64,000 nucleotides of DNA. Source: a virus. The stretch is taken from positions 1-64,000 of the IMG/VR virus record IMGVR_UViG_3300025816_000009; one strand, given 5' to 3'. Below are positions 3,132-64,000 of this stretch, piece after piece (within the stretch, counting starts at the first letter, position 1; each line of letters begins with the position of its first letter). The notes below the pieces were generated by a model. The model saw only the letters and a list, made by a program, of their open reading frames with translations, made no database searches and was not told the DNA's origin. A program made the position numbers and the translations under genes.

Positions 3132-3806
3132 ATGACGAGAAACTTTAGAGATACAGCAACAGCAACAAGAGCATTGAAAGAAACTCAAAAAAATTGGTTG
3201 ATGAGAATACAAAACGCATACGGTGAAAACTATTATGACGCTTTATCTGATTCGGAAAAAGCCGAACTTGATACGTTTAGAACTGCGATGAAAAATCTTT
3301 CTAGCATATCGACTAAAGAGTCATATCACGACGATGGCGTTTTTCCAACTATTCCATCTTGGTTTGACTATGGTGATTTAGCAGAATCCCAAGGAGTTTC
3401 AAGAGCAACAGCCGGCCCGACAGGAGCGACCGGACCTACAGGCAATACAGGCAATACAGGTCCTACAGGGCCAACAGGAAGCGCAGGTCCACCCGGCAAT
3501 ACAGGCGGTACAGGTCCTAGAGGGCTAACAGGAAGCGCAGGTCCACCCGGTCCGAGCGGTAGTGATGGAAGCGACGGAAGTGCAGGTCCGCCCGGTCCTA
3601 CAGGACCAACAGGAAGTGCAGGTCCACCCGGCGCTACAGGTCCAACAGGTCCTAGCGGTGGCGGCGGCGGCAGTGCAATTGATGTTAATTTTGATGGAAG
3701 AGAATCAACTACGATGGTGCAGTGGCTTGTTGATTCAAGAGGCGGAACAATCCAAATCCACTTTGCGAACGGAGCGGTTGGAACAATAACCGGCGTCTTA
3801 TTCTAA
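3132..3806 (+). CDS. Tail-fibre-assembly-like N-terminal domain fused to collagen repeat
   Basis: N-terminal [19 protein letters not shown]...FPTIPSW resembles tail fibre assembly chaperones; followed by Gly-X-Y repeats; directly downstream of the fibre gene. Confidence 0.55.
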
Positions 3807-3842: not shown

Positions 3843-4904
3843 GTGAAAATCGGCCTAGCCATGATAGTAAAAGATGAACAAGACAATATCGTTCGTGCGC
3901 TTGAAACTGTAAAAGACGCATTTGACGTCTTCTGTATCAATTATTCGGGGTCAACAGATTCGACCCTTGAAGTTGGAGAAAAGTGGATGGAAGAAAATGA
4001 GAAAGATGGGATTTGGATTTGCCCGGAATGGAATGGCGCGGCCGACGGACTAAATGCGACAATCGAGTACCTAGCGGAAATGGAAGTAGATTGGGTCTTG
4101 CGTATTGACGCCGATAGCCTGTTCACAGGAACGCTCCCAGACTTCGAAAAACTTGACCAAGATACAGACGGAATTGATACTAAGATTCTTAGAAATGATG
4201 GAACTTTCATCGCATCTCGACCATGGCTTTTCAAAACTCATTGTCGATACAAAGGAGTTCGACACGAAGGGCTTTATTGTAATCAACGAGAAGAACAAAC
4301 AAGTTTCACAATCACTCACGCAGATGACAGCGGAGCGCGTCCGCGTAGCCCGGAAACTTATGCAGATGACTTTCAACAAATGGGGGGAGCGATACCGGGA
4401 GAGTATGATTCGATGATGGTTAAGCGGTATGCGTTTTACATGGCGAACTCGGCGAGAGATGGTGGAGATTTATTCCAAGCCGCGATGTGGTTCAGATTGA
4501 GAATGACGATGGGCGGTTATGCGGGTGAAGTAGAAGTTTCAGCAAGAGAACACGCTCTGATAATGGGACAACCTCACTTTTGGCTTGACGCGATTAACAA
4601 ACATCCGAATAGACCGGACATGATATTTTGGGCATTGGCGACAGCAGAAGGTTGCGGCGGTGTACCTTTCAAAGCACAAGTTCTTGAAATGATGGATGCT
4701 GAAAAGTGGGAGCAAGGTTGTATGTTTATGCAGGCTGATTATGCTTGGAAAACTCGAGACATGATTTCGATTGCATATGGTGAATTGGGTCAGATGGAGA
4801 AATCGCTTGATTGGGGAAGACAAGTTTTGGTTTGGAGAGATGAGATTCACGCAGATGATTTGGCTCGCATATTGAGCCGAATAGGTGAAAGTGAAGGTGA
4901 GTAA
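3843..4904 (+). CDS. GT2-family glycosyltransferase with TPR-like C-terminus
   Basis: IGLAMIVKDE start, GSTDST, VLRIDAD (DxD motif), YKGVRHE, helical C-terminal half. Confidence 0.8.
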   Translation: MKIGLAMIVKDEQDNIVRALETVKDAFDVFCINYSGSTDSTLEVGEKWMEENEKDGIWICPEWNGAADGLNATIEYLAEMEVDWVLRIDADSLFTGTLPDFEKLDQDTDGIDTKILRNDGTFIASRPWLFKTHCRYKGVRHEGLYCNQREEQTSFTITHADDSGARPRSPETYADDFQQMGGAIPGEYDSMMVKRYAFYMANSARDGGDLFQAAMWFRLRMTMGGYAGEVEVSAREHALIMGQPHFWLDAINKHPNRPDMIFWALATAEGCGGVPFKAQVLEMMDAEKWEQGCMFMQADYAWKTRDMISIAYGELGQMEKSLDWGRQVLVWRDEIHADDLARILSRIGESEGE

Positions 4905-5808: not shown

Positions 5809-5946
5809 ATGGCGTGGCGAGTAATTGCATGGGAAGACAGGACGGATATTGTCGAAGGAATAATAGAAAATACAGAAACAGGCGAACTTGTAAAGGTAAT
5901 TACCGATAAAGTGGCCGGAACTTCTCTCGAAATTGCCCTAAATTAA
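5809..5946 (+). CDS. Small hypothetical protein (45 aa)
   Basis: ATG after an AT-rich TATA-like tract; MAWRVIAWEDRTDIVEGIIEN...; below the ORF-track cutoff. Confidence 0.45.
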   Translation: MAWRVIAWEDRTDIVEGIIENTETGELVKVITDKVAGTSLEIALN

Positions 5947-5951
5947 GGAAT

Positions 5952-5989
5952 ATTGATGTTCAGGACATTGATATATCAAAACCTTTATA
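5952..5989 (+). promoter_or_regulatory. ATTGA-repeat promoter cassette (rightward arm)
   Basis: attgatgttcaggacattgatatatcaaaacctttata. Confidence 0.7.
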
Positions 5990-6026
5990 GGGGGGAATGC
6001 CTACGACAATACAGGAGAGAGACGAG

Positions 6027-20151: not shown

Positions 20152-20209
20152 CGTATTCATAGCGGTTGCCGCGTCAGTCGTTCGCTGTACTGCCCTCACG
20201 CTTTCTAGT

Positions 20210-20245
20210 TATAAACCTTTTCATTGATAGATTGTGAAATTGATA
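20210..20245 (-). promoter_or_regulatory. ATTGA-repeat promoter cassette (leftward arm only)
   Basis: tataaaccttttcattgatagattgtgaaattgat. Confidence 0.7.
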
Positions 20246-20249
20246 TTGG

Positions 20250-20402
20250 GTTAGATTCCCCCCGTTCGTTATCACGAGTAGTTTCGGGGGGGATTCTTTT
20301 TCGATGTGTTTTAAGCATCAGAGTCCGGATTTGCACCGGCAGGTTCGCGACACCGGCCTGTCCTAAATTACCCGACCGAAGCCGGGCGCAGACGCCTCTC
20401 CC
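20250..20402 (-). ncRNA. Putative structured ncRNA A
   Basis: Starts at G 30 nt after TATA; GCCCGGC-UUCG-GUCGGGU hairpin; CCGG-UGCAAAU-CCGG T-loop-like hairpin; AGGCGUC/GAUGCUU closing stem; 3' C7/G6 hairpin. Confidence 0.55.
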
Positions 20403-20426
20403 AAACTGAACGGGTCGCTTTCTAGT

Positions 20427-20478
20427 TATAAAACTTTCTATTGAGATATTGTAATATTGATAAATAGAAACCTTAATA
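20427..20478. promoter_or_regulatory. Bidirectional ATTGA-repeat promoter cassette
   Basis: tataaaactttctattgagatattgtaatattgataaatagaaaccttaata. Confidence 0.75.
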
Positions 20479-25425: not shown

Positions 25426-25851
25426 ATGGCTCTCGTAGATTTGAAGAAAGCAGAACTCGTCGCTCTCGCAGAAGAGAACGGATTAGATACAACAGGAACT
25501 AAAGCAGAATTGGCTGAAAGACTCGATGCCGTCCTATCATGGGATGATGCAGAAGAGGAAGAAGTGGTTGAAGAAACCGTTGAAGAAGTAGCCGAGGAAG
25601 TCGTTGAAGAAGTAGTTGAAGAAGCGGCAGAAGAAGAGACAAGCGATGAACTTACATCATGGAAGGGATTCGATTTGACAGAAGGAGATTCTGACACTTT
25701 CTTGAAAGGACTTTACATGAAAGTTCTAGGCAGAGAAGTTGACTTAGGTGGTCTTCGTCATTACACATCTGTTCTTGATATGCACAAAACTCAAACTCGT
25801 GCAGATGTTTTACAAGACTTACTGAACTCCGAAGAATACAAGAACAAGTGA
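25426..25851 (+). CDS. SAP/HeH domain + acidic linker + DUF4214-like domain protein
   Basis: LKKAELVALAEENGLDTTGTKAELAERL; LYMKVLGREVDLGGLRHY...LLNSEEY. Confidence 0.7.
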   Translation: MALVDLKKAELVALAEENGLDTTGTKAELAERLDAVLSWDDAEEEEVVEETVEEVAEEVVEEVVEEAAEEETSDELTSWKGFDLTEGDSDTFLKGLYMKVLGREVDLGGLRHYTSVLDMHKTQTRADVLQDLLNSEEYKNK

Positions 25852-25957
25852 TTAGGCATGAATCCCGCATGGGAATTAATTTGCCTCTTCGAGTTTGTTG
25901 TTTGGATTGGATTGATTACCGATTGGTTTCTCCAAGGTAATAGAAGATGGTAGTTTT

Positions 25958-26134
25958 GGGAATGACCTTAGAAGGCTGAACGGATTAGGACATATTTCGA
26001 ACTATGCACCGACGTTGGAATAACTAACTCCACACCTTAGTCTCATTTCACTCTCTTTCAAGCACGTTATGAGATACCTTCACATTCCCGCCGCCCGTTG
26101 TGGTCGCGGGGCGACATAGGAACTAAGTTCCTAC
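25958..26134 (-). ncRNA. Putative structured ncRNA B
   Basis: G at TATA+30; 5' hairpins GUAGGAAC-UUA-GUUCCUAU and GUCGC-CCC-GCGAC; long-range GGGAAUG/CAUUCCC and UCUCAU/AUGAGA pairings; no ORF. Confidence 0.55.
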
Positions 26135-26158: not shown

Positions 26159-26210
26159 TATTAATGTTTCGGTGTATCAATGTCAGTGAACCTCAATGAA
26201 AAGGTTTATA
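26159..26210. promoter_or_regulatory. Bidirectional ATTGA-repeat promoter cassette (inverted)
   Basis: tattaatgtttcggtgtatcaatgtcagtgaacctcaatgaaaaggtttata. Confidence 0.75.
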
Positions 26211-26234
26211 ACTGAAAGCCTGCCTCATTAGTTT

Positions 26235-26345
26235 GTAGGAAGACGCGACACGACATCGACCCGGACGCGCCCTTTACTAGACGCTGTTGAAAAATACTCG
26301 CATGAAAGGGACATGGATGGCGCTATTCACGCTCCGTCTTCCTAC
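26235..26345 (+). ncRNA. Putative structured ncRNA C
   Basis: Begins exactly at TATA+30; perfect 11-bp terminal stem GUAGGAAGACG/CGUCUUCCUAC; internal CCCUUU/AAAGGG. Confidence 0.65.
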
Positions 26346-29332: not shown

Positions 29333-29386
29333 TTAATAAAGGTTTTCATTGAGAGGTTAAGACATTGAGATAAGGAAACCTTTATA
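29333..29386. promoter_or_regulatory. Bidirectional ATTGA-repeat promoter cassette
   Basis: ttaataaaggttttcattgagaggttaagacattgagataaggaaacctttata. Confidence 0.75.
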
Positions 29387-29409
29387 GGTGGAAACCTCTA
29401 GGGTTAAAC

Positions 29410-29706
29410 ATGGCAAGACAGATGGCGCTTACACAACAAATCAGAAACAGACTACCTACTCTATACTCAACAGATGGAGCGGGAACAGAAGCAATCGGAC
29501 AAGTACGATACTTTTGGGGAAGCAGTGCTTCCTTCGTAGCAACAGAGTTCGACGGAGAAGATACATTCTTCGGATATATCAGCGGTGTTCAAGAAGACGG
29601 ATGGACTTACATGAGCCTTTCAGAAATGTGGTCAACACACGGACGCTTCATGGGTACAGAGAGAGATTACCACTTCACACCAACAGCAATCGCAAACCTA
29701 CAGTAA
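29410..29706 (+). CDS. DUF2958-like protein (cassette-driven)
   Basis: LPTLYST...VRYF...ATEFDGEDTFFGY...WTYMSLSEM. Confidence 0.65.
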   Translation: MARQMALTQQIRNRLPTLYSTDGAGTEAIGQVRYFWGSSASFVATEFDGEDTFFGYISGVQEDGWTYMSLSEMWSTHGRFMGTERDYHFTPTAIANLQ

Positions 29707-38160: not shown

Positions 38161-38196
38161 TATAAACCTTTTCATTGAGAGTTTAGTAATATTGAG
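38161..38196 (-). promoter_or_regulatory. ATTGA-repeat promoter cassette (leftward arm)
   Basis: tataaaccttttcattgagagtttagtaatattgag. Confidence 0.7.
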
Positions 38197-38404
38197 GTAA
38201 GAGAAGCGGGCAATTACAAACCTTCTTGGAATCTCTTCCTTTTCTCGGTTTCCTCATCCTGTCCCGTCTTCTCTTAGGTTGTAAGATTTCGCGTTGCTGT
38301 TGGTCCTAGCCTTTTAGTGATATTTTCCATCATTCTATTCAAGTTTTTACACTCTGTTTCTTTCACTACCCTAACTTTCACGAATCCGCGCCGCGTCCTC
38401 TTAC
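38197..38404 (-). ncRNA. Putative structured ncRNA F
   Basis: G at TATA+30; terminal stem GUAAGAGGACGCGG / CCCGCUUCUCUUAC; A/G-rich interior. Confidence 0.6.
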
Positions 38405-38428
38405 AAACTAAACGAGTCGTCTTTTGGT

Positions 38429-38480
38429 TATAAACCTTTTTATTGAGAGTTCTTTACATTGATAGTTCGAAACACTTATA
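38429..38480. promoter_or_regulatory. Bidirectional ATTGA-repeat promoter cassette
   Basis: tataaacctttttattgagagttctttacattgatagttcgaaacacttata. Confidence 0.75.
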
Positions 38481-46598: not shown

Positions 46599-46642
46599 TA
46601 TAAAGGTTTCGTTCTATCAATGTTAACACATATCAATGAAAA
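46599..46642 (-). promoter_or_regulatory. ATTGA-repeat promoter cassette (inverted)
   Basis: tataaaggtttcgttctatcaatgttaacacatatcaatgaaaa. Confidence 0.7.
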
Positions 46643-46657
46643 GATTAGAATAATTTT

Positions 46658-46913
46658 GTAAGGGCAACAGTATGCCTCTGTTCAGATTCGCCGGTTTGGC
46701 GGCCGCATATTCCACACAATCCCGGTAAGGATTTCGTTCCCAACCACGAGAACTCAAATGTTTTATAGATAGGCTACTGACCACCATTCTCTCACGTTAG
46801 TTCATTTTATAATCAAGTCTAACACCAAGCAATTCCTTTCGGACCTCTTAGAGTGCGTTCCCCCTATCCTGTTGCCCGGGCGTCAAAGCGCCCAAGAGAA
46901 GCCACCTTCCCTC
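46658..46913 (-). ncRNA. Putative structured ncRNA G
   Basis: G at TATA+30; GGGCG-CUUUGA-CGCCC hairpin; perfect 9-bp long-range GGGCAACAG/CUGUUGCCC; UCC-GAAA-GGA. Confidence 0.6.
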
Positions 46914-46937
46914 AAACCTAACGAACAGCCTTTGGCT

Positions 46938-46990
46938 TATAAAGGTTTCGTTTTATCAATGTTAATAGTTATCAATAGAAAGATTTATTA
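46938..46990. promoter_or_regulatory. Bidirectional ATTGA-repeat promoter cassette (inverted)
   Basis: tataaaggtttcgttttatcaatgttaatagttatcaatagaaagatttatta. Confidence 0.75.
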
Positions 46991-50498: not shown

Positions 50499-50533
50499 TA
50501 TAAACCTTTTCATTGATAACTCAAGACATTGAT
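50499..50533 (-). promoter_or_regulatory. ATTGA-repeat promoter cassette (leftward arm)
   Basis: tataaaccttttcattgataactcaagacattgat. Confidence 0.7.
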
Positions 50534-50616
50534 GAGGCGGGGGAGCAACCCCCCATTTAGAATCAAGCCCGCAACCATGCGTGGGAATCGAACCTCTCGT
50601 AGCCCTCTTCTTCCTC
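50534..50616 (-). ncRNA. Putative structured ncRNA J (tRNA-sized, T-loop motif)
   Basis: G at TATA+30; GAGG/CCUC ends; GG-UUCGAUU-CC T-loop; CGCA-UGGU-UGCG; 3' G/C hairpin. Confidence 0.5.
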
Positions 50617-50640
50617 AATCTAAGCGAACAGCCTTTGAGT

Positions 50641-50692
50641 TATAAATCTTTTTATTGATAACTCAAGACATTGATAGAACAAAACCTTTATA
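50641..50692. promoter_or_regulatory. Bidirectional ATTGA-repeat promoter cassette
   Basis: tataaatctttttattgataactcaagacattgatagaacaaaacctttata. Confidence 0.75.
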
Positions 50693-50715
50693 TGCTGGAA
50701 GCCGTAGGACAGAAC

Positions 50716-50952
50716 ATGAGCGGCGAGACGACATTCACAACAGGCGAGACATACAGAGCAACATCAGTTTGCGATTCAAACTGTCATTGGTACTTTACAG
50801 TAGAGCGCCGAACAAACGCATCAGTATGGGTTTCAGAGCGTGGAGAAGAAGCAGTTCGCCGAGCAGTAAGAAATTACAATGGCGAAGAGTATTTCATGCC
50901 TTTCGGAACTTACTCAATGGCCGCTCATTGTTCAGCGGGCAACGTCGCTTAA
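50716..50952 (+). CDS. Small hypothetical protein (cassette-driven)
   Basis: Leaderless ATG after ggacagaac; YRATSVCDSNCHWYFTVERRT. Confidence 0.6.
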   Translation: MSGETTFTTGETYRATSVCDSNCHWYFTVERRTNASVWVSERGEEAVRRAVRNYNGEEYFMPFGTYSMAAHCSAGNVA

Positions 50953-52999: not shown

Positions 53000-53234
53000 G
53001 GGCATGAAGTTTCAAACGGCACAAGAAACTGCTTTTTATGAGTCCGCCTCTCTCTTCCTTGTGTTGTTCCATTATTCCAATCATGCCCTGTGAGTAAGAT
53101 AGAAAGGCCGCTCCCAAATCGTCCGTTCGTTCGGGAACGCCTTTCGGCGAGAGAAGATTTCTGTCCTTCCAAGACCCCTGCGGTGGCGGTTCTGCCTCGT
53201 GCTTGAAGGGCGGTGTCGGAGTGGCTTTCTTCTC
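53000..53234 (-). ncRNA. Putative structured ncRNA K (two domains)
   Basis: G at TATA+30; AGAAAG-CC/GGCCUUUCU closing stem; CGCC-GAAA-GGCG; second domain closed by GGGCAUGA/UCAUGCCC. Confidence 0.6.
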
Positions 53235-53258
53235 TGTACTGTCGTAGGCACTTCCGGC

Positions 53259-53310
53259 TATAAAGGTTTCGGTTTATCAATGTCTCATTCTATCAATAAA
53301 AAGACTTATA
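53259..53310. promoter_or_regulatory. Bidirectional ATTGA-repeat promoter cassette (inverted)
   Basis: tataaaggtttcggtttatcaatgtctcattctatcaataaaaagacttata. Confidence 0.75.
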
Positions 53311-59589: not shown

Positions 59590-59618
59590 TTTCATTGATA
59601 AAACCAAAACATTGATAA
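59590..59618 (+). promoter_or_regulatory. Truncated ATTGA-repeat cassette
   Basis: tttcattgataaaaccaaaacattgataa followed by gggggaagacataggacgaaacATG. Confidence 0.5.
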
Positions 59619-59640
59619 GGGGGAAGACATAGGACGAAAC

Positions 59641-59748
59641 ATGGAGATAAGTCCTAGTTTGATAGGACCAATCGTGGTATTGTTGCCACCTTTGGGAATG
59701 ATAGTAGTCGGGTTGTTAATGACCGGAATGTTGACCGTTCGTCGGTAA
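59641..59748 (+). CDS. 35-aa single-TM peptide
   Basis: MEISPSLIGPIVVLLPPLGMIVVGLLMTGMLTVRR; leaderless, behind a cassette-type initiator. Confidence 0.45.
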   Translation: MEISPSLIGPIVVLLPPLGMIVVGLLMTGMLTVRR

Positions 59749-60593: not shown

Positions 60594-60838
60594 TAATGTA
60601 CGACCCGAATCATGGATTATATCAACGAGTGAAAGCAGAATCAGCGCTTGGTATTGACGAGGAAACTCGCGACCAAATTATGACTGCCGTCAAACTTGAC
60701 TTACTTCTTGCTCATGCGGGAATCACTGACGATAAAATCGAATTGGCTTATGACGCCGCATTGAAAAATCAATTGGCTGATGTCAGAGATGCTTTCGAAG
60801 CCCTCGTCGGGAAGGACGAGGATTTGGATGAGATTTGA
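60590..60838 (+). CDS. Hypothetical protein
   Basis: ATGA overlap. Confidence 0.55.
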   Translation: MIMYDPNHGLYQRVKAESALGIDEETRDQIMTAVKLDLLLAHAGITDDKIELAYDAALKNQLADVRDAFEALVGKDEDLDEI

Positions 60839-62003
60839 TAATGAGAAAATGGAATTACTTCTCGAACATCTCGGGTTCAGACATTTCCCAAGGGCGATAG
60901 GAAATCCAAGACAAGAGTTCGTTTACTCAACCGATGAAGTTTATCCGAAACTTGTTCAGTGGGATGGTAATTCATCTTGCTTCATTTCAACCGGCGGTTA
61001 TGACGCGCTCAAGTGGGAAGTTGGAAATAAACAAAGTCCGGGTAAAATAATTCACGAGATGACTTTCTTTGACTTCGACCACGAGACGAAACCGGAAAAC
61101 GCATTTGCTGACGCTCAAAGATTATCTCAATTCTTGACGAAGATGAACATCGCACATTGGGTTCAGTATTCCGGAAGCAAGGGTTATCATTTATTCATAA
61201 TTCACAAACCTACGAAGTTCAAGTTCGACCATCGCGACGGTTCAGCGGATGCGTTGAAGAATCTTCTAAACCAAACTCAAACTCATCTCGGAAAAACACT
61301 TGGACTGAATACTTTGGATGAACAAACTACCGGCGACCCAAAACGCTTGTGTAGGATTCCATTCACTCGTCATGTAAATCGCTTGGGTAAATTATCCGGC
61401 AGATATGCTGTTCCTGTTGACACGGAAAAACTTGACACAATTTCACACGAGGATATTGAAAAAATGTCCTATCGACCTCGATACGCTTTGCCTAACATCA
61501 TCGGGAGAAGACTAACTTTGCGAGATTTCATTGTCGAACTTGGTGTTGAACTTCACCAACCCGAAACTCAACTTCGTGATATTATCAATTCCGATTTCGA
61601 TTACAATCCATCAACGACGGCATTTCTAAAATCGCTTGAATACAGATGTCCGGGTGTCGTCAATGAATTGAAGCGTAGGAATCCCCCACACAACGCAAGG
61701 GTGTTTAGTGCGCTGTTCGGAAAAACATTAGGCTATGATGGGGGGAGATTCGAAGATATTTGGATGGAAATGGGGAAGACAATTGGTTATGTGGACTTAC
61801 ACAATAAAGAGCATAGACTCTATCAAATGTCAACAATATTCGATGACCCGAAATGGCGGTCATTCCCGAACTGTACAACACTCAAAGCCAAGGGCTGTTG
61901 CATTGGTGAAACCTGTCCGAGATGGAAGACTTTTCAAGGTGGGGCAACTAACCAAGTTCGTACAATAAACAGGAAGTGGAGAAAGAAAAATGGTAGCAAA
62001 TAA
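60828..62003 (+). CDS. Archaeo-eukaryotic primase, PriS-PriL fusion
   Basis: FFDFD, YSGSKGYH, RLCRIP; C-terminal CPGV...HNAR...PNCxxL...C..C FeS domain. Confidence 0.85.
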   Translation: MRFDNEKMELLLEHLGFRHFPRAIGNPRQEFVYSTDEVYPKLVQWDGNSSCFISTGGYDALKWEVGNKQSPGKIIHEMTFFDFDHETKPENAFADAQRLSQFLTKMNIAHWVQYSGSKGYHLFIIHKPTKFKFDHRDGSADALKNLLNQTQTHLGKTLGLNTLDEQTTGDPKRLCRIPFTRHVNRLGKLSGRYAVPVDTEKLDTISHEDIEKMSYRPRYALPNIIGRRLTLRDFIVELGVELHQPETQLRDIINSDFDYNPSTTAFLKSLEYRCPGVVNELKRRNPPHNARVFSALFGKTLGYDGGRFEDIWMEMGKTIGYVDLHNKEHRLYQMSTIFDDPKWRSFPNCTTLKAKGCCIGETCPRWKTFQGGATNQVRTINRKWRKKNGSK

Positions 62004-62871
62004 GACAGCGAAATATGACAAGATAATCGAAAACGAAGAATCGCTTGCGGCGTTCTTTGACGGCGAACCGAACCTTGGTCAACTTTTGGGATTGTACAGA
62101 TACTCGAAAAACTTGATTGAAGAAATGGCACTTTCGGGAACGAGACAGGATATGCCGGACCAAGATGAGTTCCTATTGACTTCAATAGACCCATGGAAGT
62201 TAGAGAAAAAACTTGGGGAAATGATTCTGAACGAAATGGTTAGCCGACATCGAAAAGTTGACCATCGAGAACATTGGACGATGTGCGCGTATCTCGGAGA
62301 TTTAGGATTCGAAGTTGTTCATCTCAATACAGGAGAAGGAGATGTATCAAGTCGAAAAGTCAGTATCGAGAGAAAAGAGGACGACCTCGTTCCGTCTCTG
62401 TTCGATGGCAGAAGACTAAGACAACTAAGCGCCATGAGAGAAACTGCTGAATATTCATTTTTGATAGTTTCGAAATCATATACGGAAATCAAAAAGGGAT
62501 TACAAGAGCGACAAGTTTCAGATAAAATCTTCACGTCGTTCATAGCAAGTTTGGCCGCTGTTGGCTATCCGCCGATGTTTATTGATGACAGATACGACGC
62601 CGCTCAAGTGATGCACCAATTAATCGGGAAGATTGAAGATGACAATCATCGACTCTATGTTCCCCGACCCAAAGGCGCTAACCCAACTGATTTCCGAAAT
62701 GCTATGGTCGAGGCTTTGCCGAAGGTTGGATTCAAAACACGCCGAAAATTAGTAGCCAAGTTTCCGAGCATAGCAAAATTAGTAGCCGCGAGTGTTGATG
62801 ATATACAAGCGATTGAAGGAATTGGTCAGAAGACTGCCGAAAAGATTTGGCATTGTCTTCATGATGAATAA
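61990..62871 (+). CDS. XPF/ERCC4-family nuclease with tandem HhH
   Basis: VDHRE, GD, IERKxxDL...DGR..Q, LPKVG, IEGIGQKTA. Confidence 0.85.
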   Translation: MVANKTAKYDKIIENEESLAAFFDGEPNLGQLLGLYRYSKNLIEEMALSGTRQDMPDQDEFLLTSIDPWKLEKKLGEMILNEMVSRHRKVDHREHWTMCAYLGDLGFEVVHLNTGEGDVSSRKVSIERKEDDLVPSLFDGRRLRQLSAMRETAEYSFLIVSKSYTEIKKGLQERQVSDKIFTSFIASLAAVGYPPMFIDDRYDAAQVMHQLIGKIEDDNHRLYVPRPKGANPTDFRNAMVEALPKVGFKTRRKLVAKFPSIAKLVAASVDDIQAIEGIGQKTAEKIWHCLHDE

Positions 62872-63355
62872 CACCGGGGCTTTCAACTCTTCCTACTCAA
62901 TGAGGCATCCTTCTTCCCTAGTGTTTTTATGAGAACAGTGCCTAAGTTTCGAGTCGGATGTTCTCAAGTTTTTCTTGTTTGGGTATGCTGTATGACCACT
63001 TATTGCCTCGGCTTCTTTATCCGCTAGTGGTTCAAAGGGTTGGGAATGGGATAGCCCGTCTGCTTAGGTGCGTGAGAATTACCTCGTTGCCCCCTATCCA
63101 TCGCTACTTTCTTGCCTAATTTATCGTGGTCTGTTCATTACTATTCCATAGTGTTGTTTCCCTTCAAGGGGTTCTACCCAAGAAGTCTCTCTTCCGCTTC
63201 AATCACTCGCTGTTTTTCGCTTTAGCCGCATATGCCTATGTCTTTGTGATTTCGAAGAGAGGACAAGTCCTCGCCGCCGAGCCTTCCTCGGAAGCATCTT
63301 CGCTCATTCCCGGGAGTCCGCCTTTCGACGTCTCCCATGAGAGGCAACCTCTCAC
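62872..63355 (-). ncRNA. Putative large structured ncRNA M (~480 nt, two domains)
   Basis: G at TATA+30; 14-bp bulged stem GUGAGAGGUUGCCUC/GAGGUAAUUCUCAC; many hairpins including CGUC-GAAA-GGCG; second domain with ACCACU/AGUGGU and UGAGAACA/UGUUCUCA. Confidence 0.6.
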
Positions 63356-63379
63356 AAACTAATGAGGCAGGCTTCCACC

Positions 63380-63432
63380 TATAAAGGTTTCGGAACATCA
63401 ATGTCTTGCTATATCAATAGTTTACTTTTATT
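63380..63432. promoter_or_regulatory. ATTGA-repeat promoter cassette (inverted), back-to-back with RFC promoter
   Basis: tataaaggtttcggaacatcaatgtcttgctatatcaatag. Confidence 0.7.
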
Positions 63433-63455
63433 AAGGTGGGCATTGAGGATAGTTC

Positions 63456-64000
63456 ATGTGGACTGAAACCTATAGGCCGAATACGTTAGATGATGTAATT
63501 GGTCAAGAACACATCACTCGCCGGATTAGATACATGATAGATGAACTTCACAAGAGTGGAGATGATGGCGCTTGGCCTCATATGATGTTCGCCGGACCTG
63601 CCGGTGTTGGAAAAACTTCCGTGGCTGTTGCCATGATGCGTTCTCTGTTCGGTGAAGATTGGTCGATGAATTATATTGAATTGAATGCTTCCGACTCGAG
63701 AAGTATCAATGACATTAGAACTACAGTCAAGGACTTCTCAAGAAAAGGAGTCATGGGCGTTTACTTGGTTGATGGGAAACCAAAACCAATTCCATTCAAT
63801 GTTGTATTCCTAGACGAATGCGACAATCTGACACCCGATGCTCAATCGGCTCTCCGTAGAATCATGGAACGGTTTTCGAAACAGACTCGATTTGTTTTGT
63901 CTTGTAATTATCCGCATCAGATTATTGACCCGATTAAAGACAGGTGTGCTTTCAGCGATACTAGATTCGGACCTATTCCGGCCAAGACAATTTATGGCGC
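63456..64000 (+). CDS. rfcS: Replication factor C small subunit (clamp loader), 3'-truncated
   Basis: MWTETYRP..LDDVIGQ, FAGPAGVGKTS, IELNASD, FLDECD.LT.DAQSALRRIME, LSCNY, IKDRC; absent from the ORF track because no stop falls inside the window. Confidence 0.9.
   Translation, partial: MWTETYRPNTLDDVIGQEHITRRIRYMIDELHKSGDDGAWPHMMFAGPAGVGKTSVAVAMMRSLFGEDWSMNYIELNASDSRSINDIRTTVKDFSRKGVMGVYLVDGKPKPIPFNVVFLDECDNLTPDAQSALRRIMERFSKQTRFVLSCNYPHQIIDPIKDRCAFSDTRFGPIPAKTIYG

Follow-up and report, generated by a model that had tools for sequence, protein, structure and literature searches.

What is encoded in the 584-nt gap, free of open reading frames (ORFs), that separates an ERCC4-nuclease gene from an RFC clamp-loader gene in the virus record IMGVR_UViG_3300025816_000009? 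We analysed the first 64 kb of this record, hereafter the window (the record is 81,411 bp long and rated complete), in which nearly all long ORFs lie on the plus strand. A preliminary description, made from the letters alone, had placed a two-domain RNA of about 480 nt in this gap (62872-63455), with a possible 5' switch and a pseudoknot. The explanation that best covers the whole of the data, and that we regard as probable, is that the virus makes a non-coding RNA of ~450-515 nt, R14, from the minus strand of the gap, and that R14 belongs to a family in which a recurrent 5' "chassis" carries a variable "cargo". The firmer part of this reading, that a real structured non-coding RNA of chassis-plus-cargo build is present, is in our view highly likely.

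An RNA-library contig and a promoter at the gap

Among the sequencing runs sharing sampled words with positions 62000-64000, 14 DNA runs share nearly all of them and six RNA runs a part. The contigs of four RNA runs (X15-X18) were placed on the stretch, uncovered stretches counting for nothing. Run X18 yielded a 448-nt contig at 62896..63343, with a mean word depth of 290.4, which is confined to the gap; its orientation does not give the RNA strand, and its end at 62896, which precedes the 3' motif AGCCCCG, is a contig end and not an RNA end. The sole other X18 contig on the stretch lies in RFC (63867-64000) at a depth of 4.1. Both carry the variants of strain L043, a relative 96% identical over the gap, and so derive from a single virus strain. 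A ~70-fold difference in depth is more than uniform DNA carry-over could produce. In X15, both flanking genes have contigs (depth 2-4.25) and the gap has none.

Which strand is read, and from where? The features bearing on this question are the following.

63379..63434, both strands: divergent promoter cassette, B recognition element (BRE)/TATA elements facing outward
63380-63385, minus strand: TATA element (TTTATA, the complement of these positions) with a BRE-like element, predicted to drive the RNA
63397-63402 and 63413-63418: two ATTGA/TCAAT boxes inside the cassette
63427-63432, plus strand: TATA-like TTTATT, predicted to drive leaderless RFC
62840..63356, minus strand: R14 as the largest likely transcript, from start to first T4 run, both ends predicted
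62843-62840, minus strand: first T4 run, at +512, within the final ERCC4 codons

The genome holds ~25 copies of this cassette, often back to back, with two ATTGA/TCAAT boxes between outward BRE/TATA elements. In five genes (12939, 29410, 50716, 59641 and RFC at 63456) the ATG lies exactly 23 nt past the TATA hexamer; these genes are therefore leaderless, which fixes the start-site rule. The same spacing predicts that the RNA starts at 63356/63355, the first base of its first hairpin, G63355 lying 24 nt after its own TATA hexamer. The cassette, together with a start 23-24 nt past the hexamer, is kept in all ten related sequences examined. In base composition (AT skew of -0.31, against +0.11 for the genome) the gap therefore looks like a unit read from the minus strand, with a plus strand rich in T and C and hence a purine-rich RNA. 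Promoter direction, this skew and an invariant G.U pair closing the first hairpin support the minus strand. No ORF on either strand of the gap is conserved among relatives.

Three covarying helices and a variable interior

Does the RNA have a structure that selection maintains? The elements of R14, all on the minus strand, are listed from its 5' end.

63337..63355: P1, 8-bp hairpin from +1 with a G.U closing pair, GUGAGAGG-UUG-CCUCUCAU
63312..63336: P2, hairpin GGGAG...CUCCC, no linker to P1, 2 of 4 modelled pairs changing on both sides
63305..63311: 5' strand of P3, GGGAAUG, adjoining P2
63049..63304: cargo domain 1, ~255 nt, several hairpins, varying by lineage, with one hairpin in L044
63187..63261: long hairpin in domain 1, outer stem CUCUCUUC/GAAGAGAG
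63251-63246 with 63206-63201: inner stem of the long hairpin, AAUCAC with GUGAUU
63140..63152: small hairpin ACUAU-GGA-AUAGU, the best-conserved island common with group B
63042..63048: 3' strand of P3, CAUUCCC, followed by an A-rich stretch (AACCC in R14)
62993..63034: domain 2 hairpin H1, kept in L044
62931..62965: domain 2 hairpin H2 (GAGAACAU...CUGUUCUC)
62872..62930: 3' tail with UGCCUC and AGCCCCG, not alignable with L044

Relatives came from scans of IMG/VR, JGI metagenomes and GTDB. Besides L043 they comprise L044, whose ERCC4 and RFC proteins are 87% and 92% identical to those of this virus; group B, made up of L008 (= L010, L046, L052), L047 and L045 (= L051), with ERCC4 ~64% identical; and two further relatives with a chassis RNA, L048 and L050. 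In all of them the gap is ORF-poor and its plus strand T-rich. Two chassis paralogues with unrelated cargo lie on the minus strand of the window itself, at 25850-26134 and 46630-46913. Every member reads, from its predicted start, P1, then P2 without a linker, then GGG. A covariance model of P1 and P2, run within the 424 kb of loci, found only chassis RNAs, at 12 places of which nine are distinct, both paralogues being among them, and scored R14 at 43.9 bits (E 1.3e-8).

P1, the 5' hairpin already named in the preliminary description, stands at the predicted start in all nine distinct members, with 4 of its 8 pairs changing on both sides; its closing pair is G.U in all nine rows, and 91.7% of its cells are paired. 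In the alignment fitted to the model, P1 and P2 together have 89.8% of cells paired, against 41-53% when the partners are slid; 6 of their 12 pairs change on both sides, and none of 500 shuffles attained the observed score. P3, which that description did not list, is the long-range closure of domain 1. In six of seven lineages, a perfect Watson-Crick partner of 7-10 nt exists for the sequence starting at the first base after P2 (per-lineage p 0.0002-0.015; Fisher combined p 3e-9), the 7-bp cases being individually weak once G.U pairs are allowed. Five different sequences are used (GGGAAUG/CAUUCCC, GGGAAGAGGA/UCCUCUUCCC, GGGAAUA/UAUUCCC, GGGCAACAG/CUGUUGCCC and GGGAAUU/AAUUCCC), every partner ending in CCC, mostly with A-rich sequence next. 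Enforcing P1-P3 costs nothing in R14, the folding energy being -133.1 kcal/mol with and without the constraint. All three helices of the chassis covary. These data support a chassis made of hairpin P1 at +1, an abutting hairpin P2 and an abutting long-range stem P3 that closes the variable cargo domain; as no linker separates one helix from the next, the 5' end is placed in a three-helix junction, next to where P3 exits. Readings as a bulge-helix-bulge motif at P3 (for circularisation), a kink-turn or a C/D box were considered by eye and dropped.

The interior is supported in a more scattered manner. The window and L043 differ across the RNA by 14 base differences and 6 indels, clustered at 63203-63249 and 62926-62975, and include three compensatory double changes in total; the X18 contig shows the same changes and has 20 differences from the window, none of them within 63250-63343. 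Two of the double changes are adjacent in the inner stem of the long hairpin (63249/63203, U-A to C-G; 63248/63204, C-G to U-A). One H2 pair, A-U in the window, is replaced by G-C in L043 and by G-U in L044, and in H1 of L044 one pair is changed on both sides (U-A to C-G) and another is A-U to G-U. The small hairpin falls within a 16/18 match to L008 at an equal relative place, and L045 has a stem CCAU/AUGG in place of CUAU/AUAG, a compensating change. The comparison that the preliminary description had called for was thus borne out by covariation in P1, P2 and P3 and by compensatory changes in both domains. Of the four or more hairpins it gave to domain 1, which folding also predicts, two have comparative support. 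L044 shares its first 46 nt identically with R14 and a 118-nt block of domain 2 at 87% identity, while the third codon positions of its flanking genes are 64-68% identical; by this difference the RNA is under purifying selection. L044 lacks ~215 nt of the interior, a single short hairpin replaces domain 1, and its 3' tail is unrelated.

Not all proposed pairings fared as well. All the sequence elements of the preliminary description occur on the minus strand, in or close to their stated places, and its discrete, non-coding RNA, now ~450-515 nt long, found in an RNA library and with covarying helices, stands. Its 5' switch partner GAGGUAAUUCUCAC (63085-63072, 270 nt from the 5' end) is missing from L044, and L043 is identical there and thus uninformative. 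The domain 2 closure CGGGCU/AGCCCCG (63058-63053/62881-62875) is missing from L044 on both strands of the stem and unchanged in L043, and so is the pseudoknot GAGGCA/UGCCUC (63009-63004/62907-62902). Comparison supports none of the three. Switch, closure and pseudoknot may be features of this one lineage. The first 8 nt of R14 find three candidate 7-bp partners when G.U is allowed, so complementarity to the 5' end is common. The likeness to large ribozymes did not hold up: what members have in common is a chassis of ~55 nt and the 3' strand of one stem, and the interior is not alignable. With an interior that differs by lineage, these RNAs are therefore unlike those with large conserved catalytic cores.

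Two side observations concern these same segments. A stretch of 8 nt complementary to the 5'-terminal 8 nt of the same RNA occurs in L043 (3437-3444, +422) and L044 (3473-3480, +195), in both just after H2, and in L048 the 3' strand of P1 recurs as an exact second copy (3465-3472, +258); R14 has no such match. Relatives may thus use some alternative pairing of the 5' end, or dimerise. R14 has three copies of UAGGCA and one of GAGGCA (63238-63233, 63118-63113, 63009-63004 and 62944-62939, minus strand), mostly in predicted loops; L044 has UAGGCA twice, and the other lineages have neither motif.

Weighing the RNA against other readings

Several observations weigh against the reading of the gap as a chassis-plus-cargo RNA. 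The high depth comes from one run of one study (X18); in X16 and X17 the pieces in the gap have depths of 2.8-3.2 and those in the flanking genes 2.2-3.5, and contig word depth is a poor measure of expression. The strand, 5' end and 3' end of the RNA are deduced, contigs being unable to show them. Folding energy by itself does not exceed chance: for the minus strand the minimum free energy is -133.1 kcal/mol (z = -1.26), a level also reached by 13 of 100 shuffles. The alignment behind the pair counts favours structure through its fit to the covariance model. P3 failed the Watson-Crick test in L048, where it has 8 bp with one mismatch, and its letters are identical in R14 and the family member R3, which are not independent. 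Domain 1 is not essential, being mostly lost in L044, and no 6-mer is common to the cargoes across lineages beyond shuffles. Finally, nuclease resistance and protein binding of R14 are deductions, and Pfam scans of 40 proteins recognised no RNA-binding or RNA-guided enzyme, so that no partner protein was found.

Could the transcript matter for the DNA around it? It might act at the replication module, as a primer or through R-loop opening of an origin lying between primase/ERCC4 and RFC/PolB, or strong transcription of this convergent unit might insulate the RFC promoter from read-through; we consider this unlikely. The locus does sit inside a replication cluster, whose members are listed here.

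60780-62003: prim-pol, neighbour in the replication cluster
61990-62871: ERCC4 nuclease with HhH motifs, convergent with the RNA
63456-64475, plus strand: RFC clamp loader, ATG at 63456
Same cluster as RFC: B-family polymerase (PolB)

The RNA is also purine-rich and runs toward ERCC4, in whose final codons the first T4 run lies. By contrast, the paralogues with the same chassis, starting at 26134 and 46913, stand outside the cluster, and none of six near-complete distant relatives with the same replication genes has a chassis match, protein genes filling their gap. Compensatory changes reveal selection on RNA helices rather than on the act of transcription, and neither an AT-rich unwinding element nor an origin-type repeat was seen in the gap.

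We likewise give little weight to the possibility that R14 is a diverged member of a known family (archaeal signal recognition particle (SRP) RNA, RNase P RNA, phage packaging RNA or Tan1) missed by the models. The Rfam scan proposed in the preliminary description returned, over the whole window, no match to Rfam 15 at the gathering score and none at E<=0.05; around the gap, three C/D small nucleolar RNA matches at E<=10 are at chance level (12-16 bits against cut-offs of 35-40). ARAGORN found no tRNA or transfer-messenger RNA gene in the window. The RNA belongs to a family outside the libraries searched, and within the reach of these libraries the proposal of a new RNA class stands. Archaeal SRP RNA has two hairpins near its 5' end and then a long-range helix enclosing a multi-helix domain, and R14 loosely resembles the 5' part of this layout. 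Unlike SRP RNA, R14 has no covariance-model match, 5' and 3' ends that do not pair with each other, three paralogues with unrelated interiors, and is encoded by a virus. Packaging RNA (pRNA) of phi29-like phages and similar virus-made structured RNAs have their own promoter, are abundant and fold into a compact multi-helix junction. R14 resembles pRNA in being virus-encoded, with its own promoter and a compact multi-helix junction; as opposed to pRNA, it has no Rfam match, its three scattered paralogues are not beside packaging genes, and its interior varies and can be lost. GOLLD, ROOL, HEARO and OLE are large and structured, sometimes phage-borne or very abundant, with large conserved cores and functions that are unknown or recently found; R14 is likewise large, structured and virus-borne, but matches none of them in Rfam and its family has ~55 nt and one stem strand in common.

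Tan1 (Thalassoarchaea ncRNA 1) was compared by description only. According to the excerpt available of PMC5069720, it is a very abundant 229-nt RNA of complex predicted structure, found in Red Sea metatranscriptomes and with Marine Group II sequences, assigned to host-type fosmids, with six published homologues and no assigned function. By this description R14 is like Tan1 an abundant structured RNA in a Marine Group II setting, and differs from it in length (~450-515 nt against 229 nt) and in belonging to a virus rather than host-type fosmids; kinship between the two is improbable. In the excerpts available of the magrovirus papers PMC5434244, PMC11706807 and PMC10160649, non-coding RNA, intergenic regions and promoters are not mentioned, and RNA genes of magroviruses appear not to be in print there. 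The portions of the literature on structured RNAs of archaeal viruses that were consulted held no relevant report.

A third alternative, which we hold to be very unlikely, is that there is no separate RNA gene, the signal coming from a plus-strand ERCC4 3' untranslated region (UTR), an RFC 5' UTR or DNA carry-over. The contigs are strandless, RNA libraries can contain DNA, and the hairpins would for the most part form on the plus strand as well. However, DNA would give equal depth, as opposed to the 290.4 on the gap and 4.1 on RFC seen for one strain in X18. RFC, leaderless from a TATA element 23 nt upstream, has no long 5' UTR, and the sole cassette promoter reading into the gap points to the minus strand. 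On the plus strand, the invariant G.U closure of P1, its further G.U and U.G pairs along with those of P2, and a G.U within the P3 of L008 would be A.C mismatches. The minus strand folds better, the plus-strand z being +0.52.

Least credible of all, and scarcely worth entertaining, is an mRNA for a small protein: a 39-aa GTG ORF (63355-63236, minus strand) does begin at the predicted +1 in a genome where leaderless genes are the rule, and a 78-aa ORF (63126-63362, plus strand) is intact in L043, but the former loses its stop in L043 and X18 (63237 T>A), encodes a different peptide in L044 beyond codon 15, has no start codon at +1 in group B, L048, L050, R3 and R8 and meets P1 changes that compensate the helix, while the latter differs from L043 in 9 codons, 6 of them non-synonymously (including A>P, A>D, Y>K and V>G), has a best blastp match of E = 2.3 among relatives' gap ORFs and no cassette promoter upstream in its direction, and lies mostly inside the stretch that L044 has lost.

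A possible role for R14, its distribution and its setting

If the gap encodes the chassis-plus-cargo RNA R14, what might this RNA do? The archaeal-type promoter, back to back with that of RFC, is predicted to start R14 at the first base of P1. P3 closes a variable, multi-hairpin cargo, followed in this lineage by a second domain of two hairpins. The P1-P2-P3 junction would then hide the 5' triphosphate end from 5'-end-dependent decay, so that the RNA accumulates. A similar principle operates in the exonuclease-resistant RNAs (xrRNA) and subgenomic RNAs (sfRNA) of flaviviruses, where a folded junction blocks 5'-3' decay and non-coding viral RNA piles up. By analogy, a 5' junction blocking decay is the working principle we propose for R14. 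The flavivirus elements occur in eukaryotic RNA viruses, arise by stalled decay of the genome and adopt a ring-like pseudoknot fold; unlike them, the junction of R14 would lie at the start of a primary transcript of an archaeal DNA virus. That the chassis stabilises the RNA is, we infer, a nearly even proposition, tilting slightly toward no.

The cargo would act in trans, more probably as a decoy or scaffold for a host or viral protein than through antisense pairing. Perfect complementarity to viral plus-strand transcripts extends over 11 nt at most, against 11-15 nt in shuffles. When 201 genomes of the presumed host order were searched at the DNA level, four matches of 22-28 nt turned up, scattered over the query and none convincing. 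With no shared cargo motif, no complement beyond chance and nothing in these genomes, the data speak against antisense and weakly for protein binding. A protein-binding decoy or scaffold is, as we infer it, a tentative assignment and rather doubtful. Equally speculative is the broader idea of a modular RNA platform, in which a constant three-helix 5' chassis gives long-lived transcripts whose exchangeable, fast-evolving cargo serves as decoys or scaffolds against host nucleases or defence. If true, several RNAs per genome in their own cassettes, together with some ten ORF-less units described below, would form an RNA-based toolkit for host takeover, and this would account for the mixed content of the ERCC4-RFC gap, which is occupied by accessory protein genes in one set of relatives and by RNAs in another. 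R14 would offer a first handle on RNA-based functions of magrovirus-like viruses, its promoter and start rule could serve to annotate them, and its compact 5' junction is directly testable for nuclease resistance. Should the chassis stabilise arbitrary cargo in archaea, it would be a useful tool.

How widespread is the family? A blastn search with the gap found no match among 50,697 phage records, and blastn and nhmmer against 35 IMG/VR loci returned only promoter pieces and one 18-nt island. Single-query searches of IMG/VR gave no locus for ERCC4 and one for RFC, a strict chassis pattern in IMG/VR hit the L008 record only, and the GTDB contigs contributed two distant loci only. Against 121 genomes of the presumed host order, the chassis model gave one match, no better than chance (per-genome E 0.048). 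We read the family as a small group of chassis-plus-cargo RNAs from one subclade of magrovirus-like archaeal viruses. The L008 record carries a second chassis copy (L070, G001:C1 34262-34312), and the L048 RNA at the ERCC4-RFC site resembles this second copy more than it does the L008 RNA at that site. Such a pattern suggests that RNA units may move between cassettes.

More distant relatives have plus-strand accessory genes in the ERCC4-RFC gap. Because the chassis is missing from the six near-complete distant relatives whose gap carries such genes, we read R14 as a probable accessory rather than a core replication function. Gap genes occur in L017, L019, L020, L024, L026, L031, L033 and L037, the site being a hot spot for cargo, and include a P-loop kinase-like gene (162-170 aa), a 276-aa ORF, a glycosyltransferase-like gene (561 aa) and an FkbM-like methyltransferase (223-236 aa), of which this genome has a homologue at 74803-75408. 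A tblastn search of these accessory proteins against the gap of the window gave nothing below E 0.3; the gap is therefore not a decayed copy of those genes. In L009 the same gap has two direct repeats of ~38 nt (3870-3905 and 4050-4090) and no chassis RNA.

As for the virus itself, the gene set of this cluster matches that reported for magroviruses in the excerpt available of PMC5434244, and on this account we label it a putative magrovirus-like archaeal virus. Magrovirus hosts are described in excerpts of PMC5434244 and PMC10160649 as Marine Group II archaea, an uncultured group that ranks with the most abundant microbes in surface ocean waters. The closest named relatives of the RFC protein are tailed viruses of haloarchaea (34% identity), and ERCC4 has more than 100 relatives, many on marine-sample contigs of ~80 kb. 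Downstream of the polymerase gene lie a MoxR/CbbQ-type AAA ATPase (genome 68091-69335; L068 4192-5436) and a CobT-type protein with a VWA domain (genome 70526-72694; L068 6627-8795).

Copies of the promoter cassette, of which the following are examples, recur along the window.

5946-6019, 20210-20478, 26159-26241, 29335-29417 and 38161-38480: cassette examples
46599-46982, 50499-50723, 53234-53303, 59590-59641 and 63379-63434: further cassette examples
Near 20186(-), 20403(-), 26234(+), 29311(-) and 38137(-): starts of ORF-less units
Near 38405(-), 47013(+), 50475(-), 50617(-) and 53235(-): further starts of ORF-less units

About ten more units are driven by a cassette and have no ORF at their start; they may be small RNAs. 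None of them was matched in Rfam, and several open with UUAGUUUGUA(A/G)GA(A/G)GACGCG. In the unit at 26236(+) the 5' end pairs downstream over 10 bp (+99 to +108), and in that at 38403(-) over 8 bp (+198 to +205), both of which fit small RNAs with paired termini.

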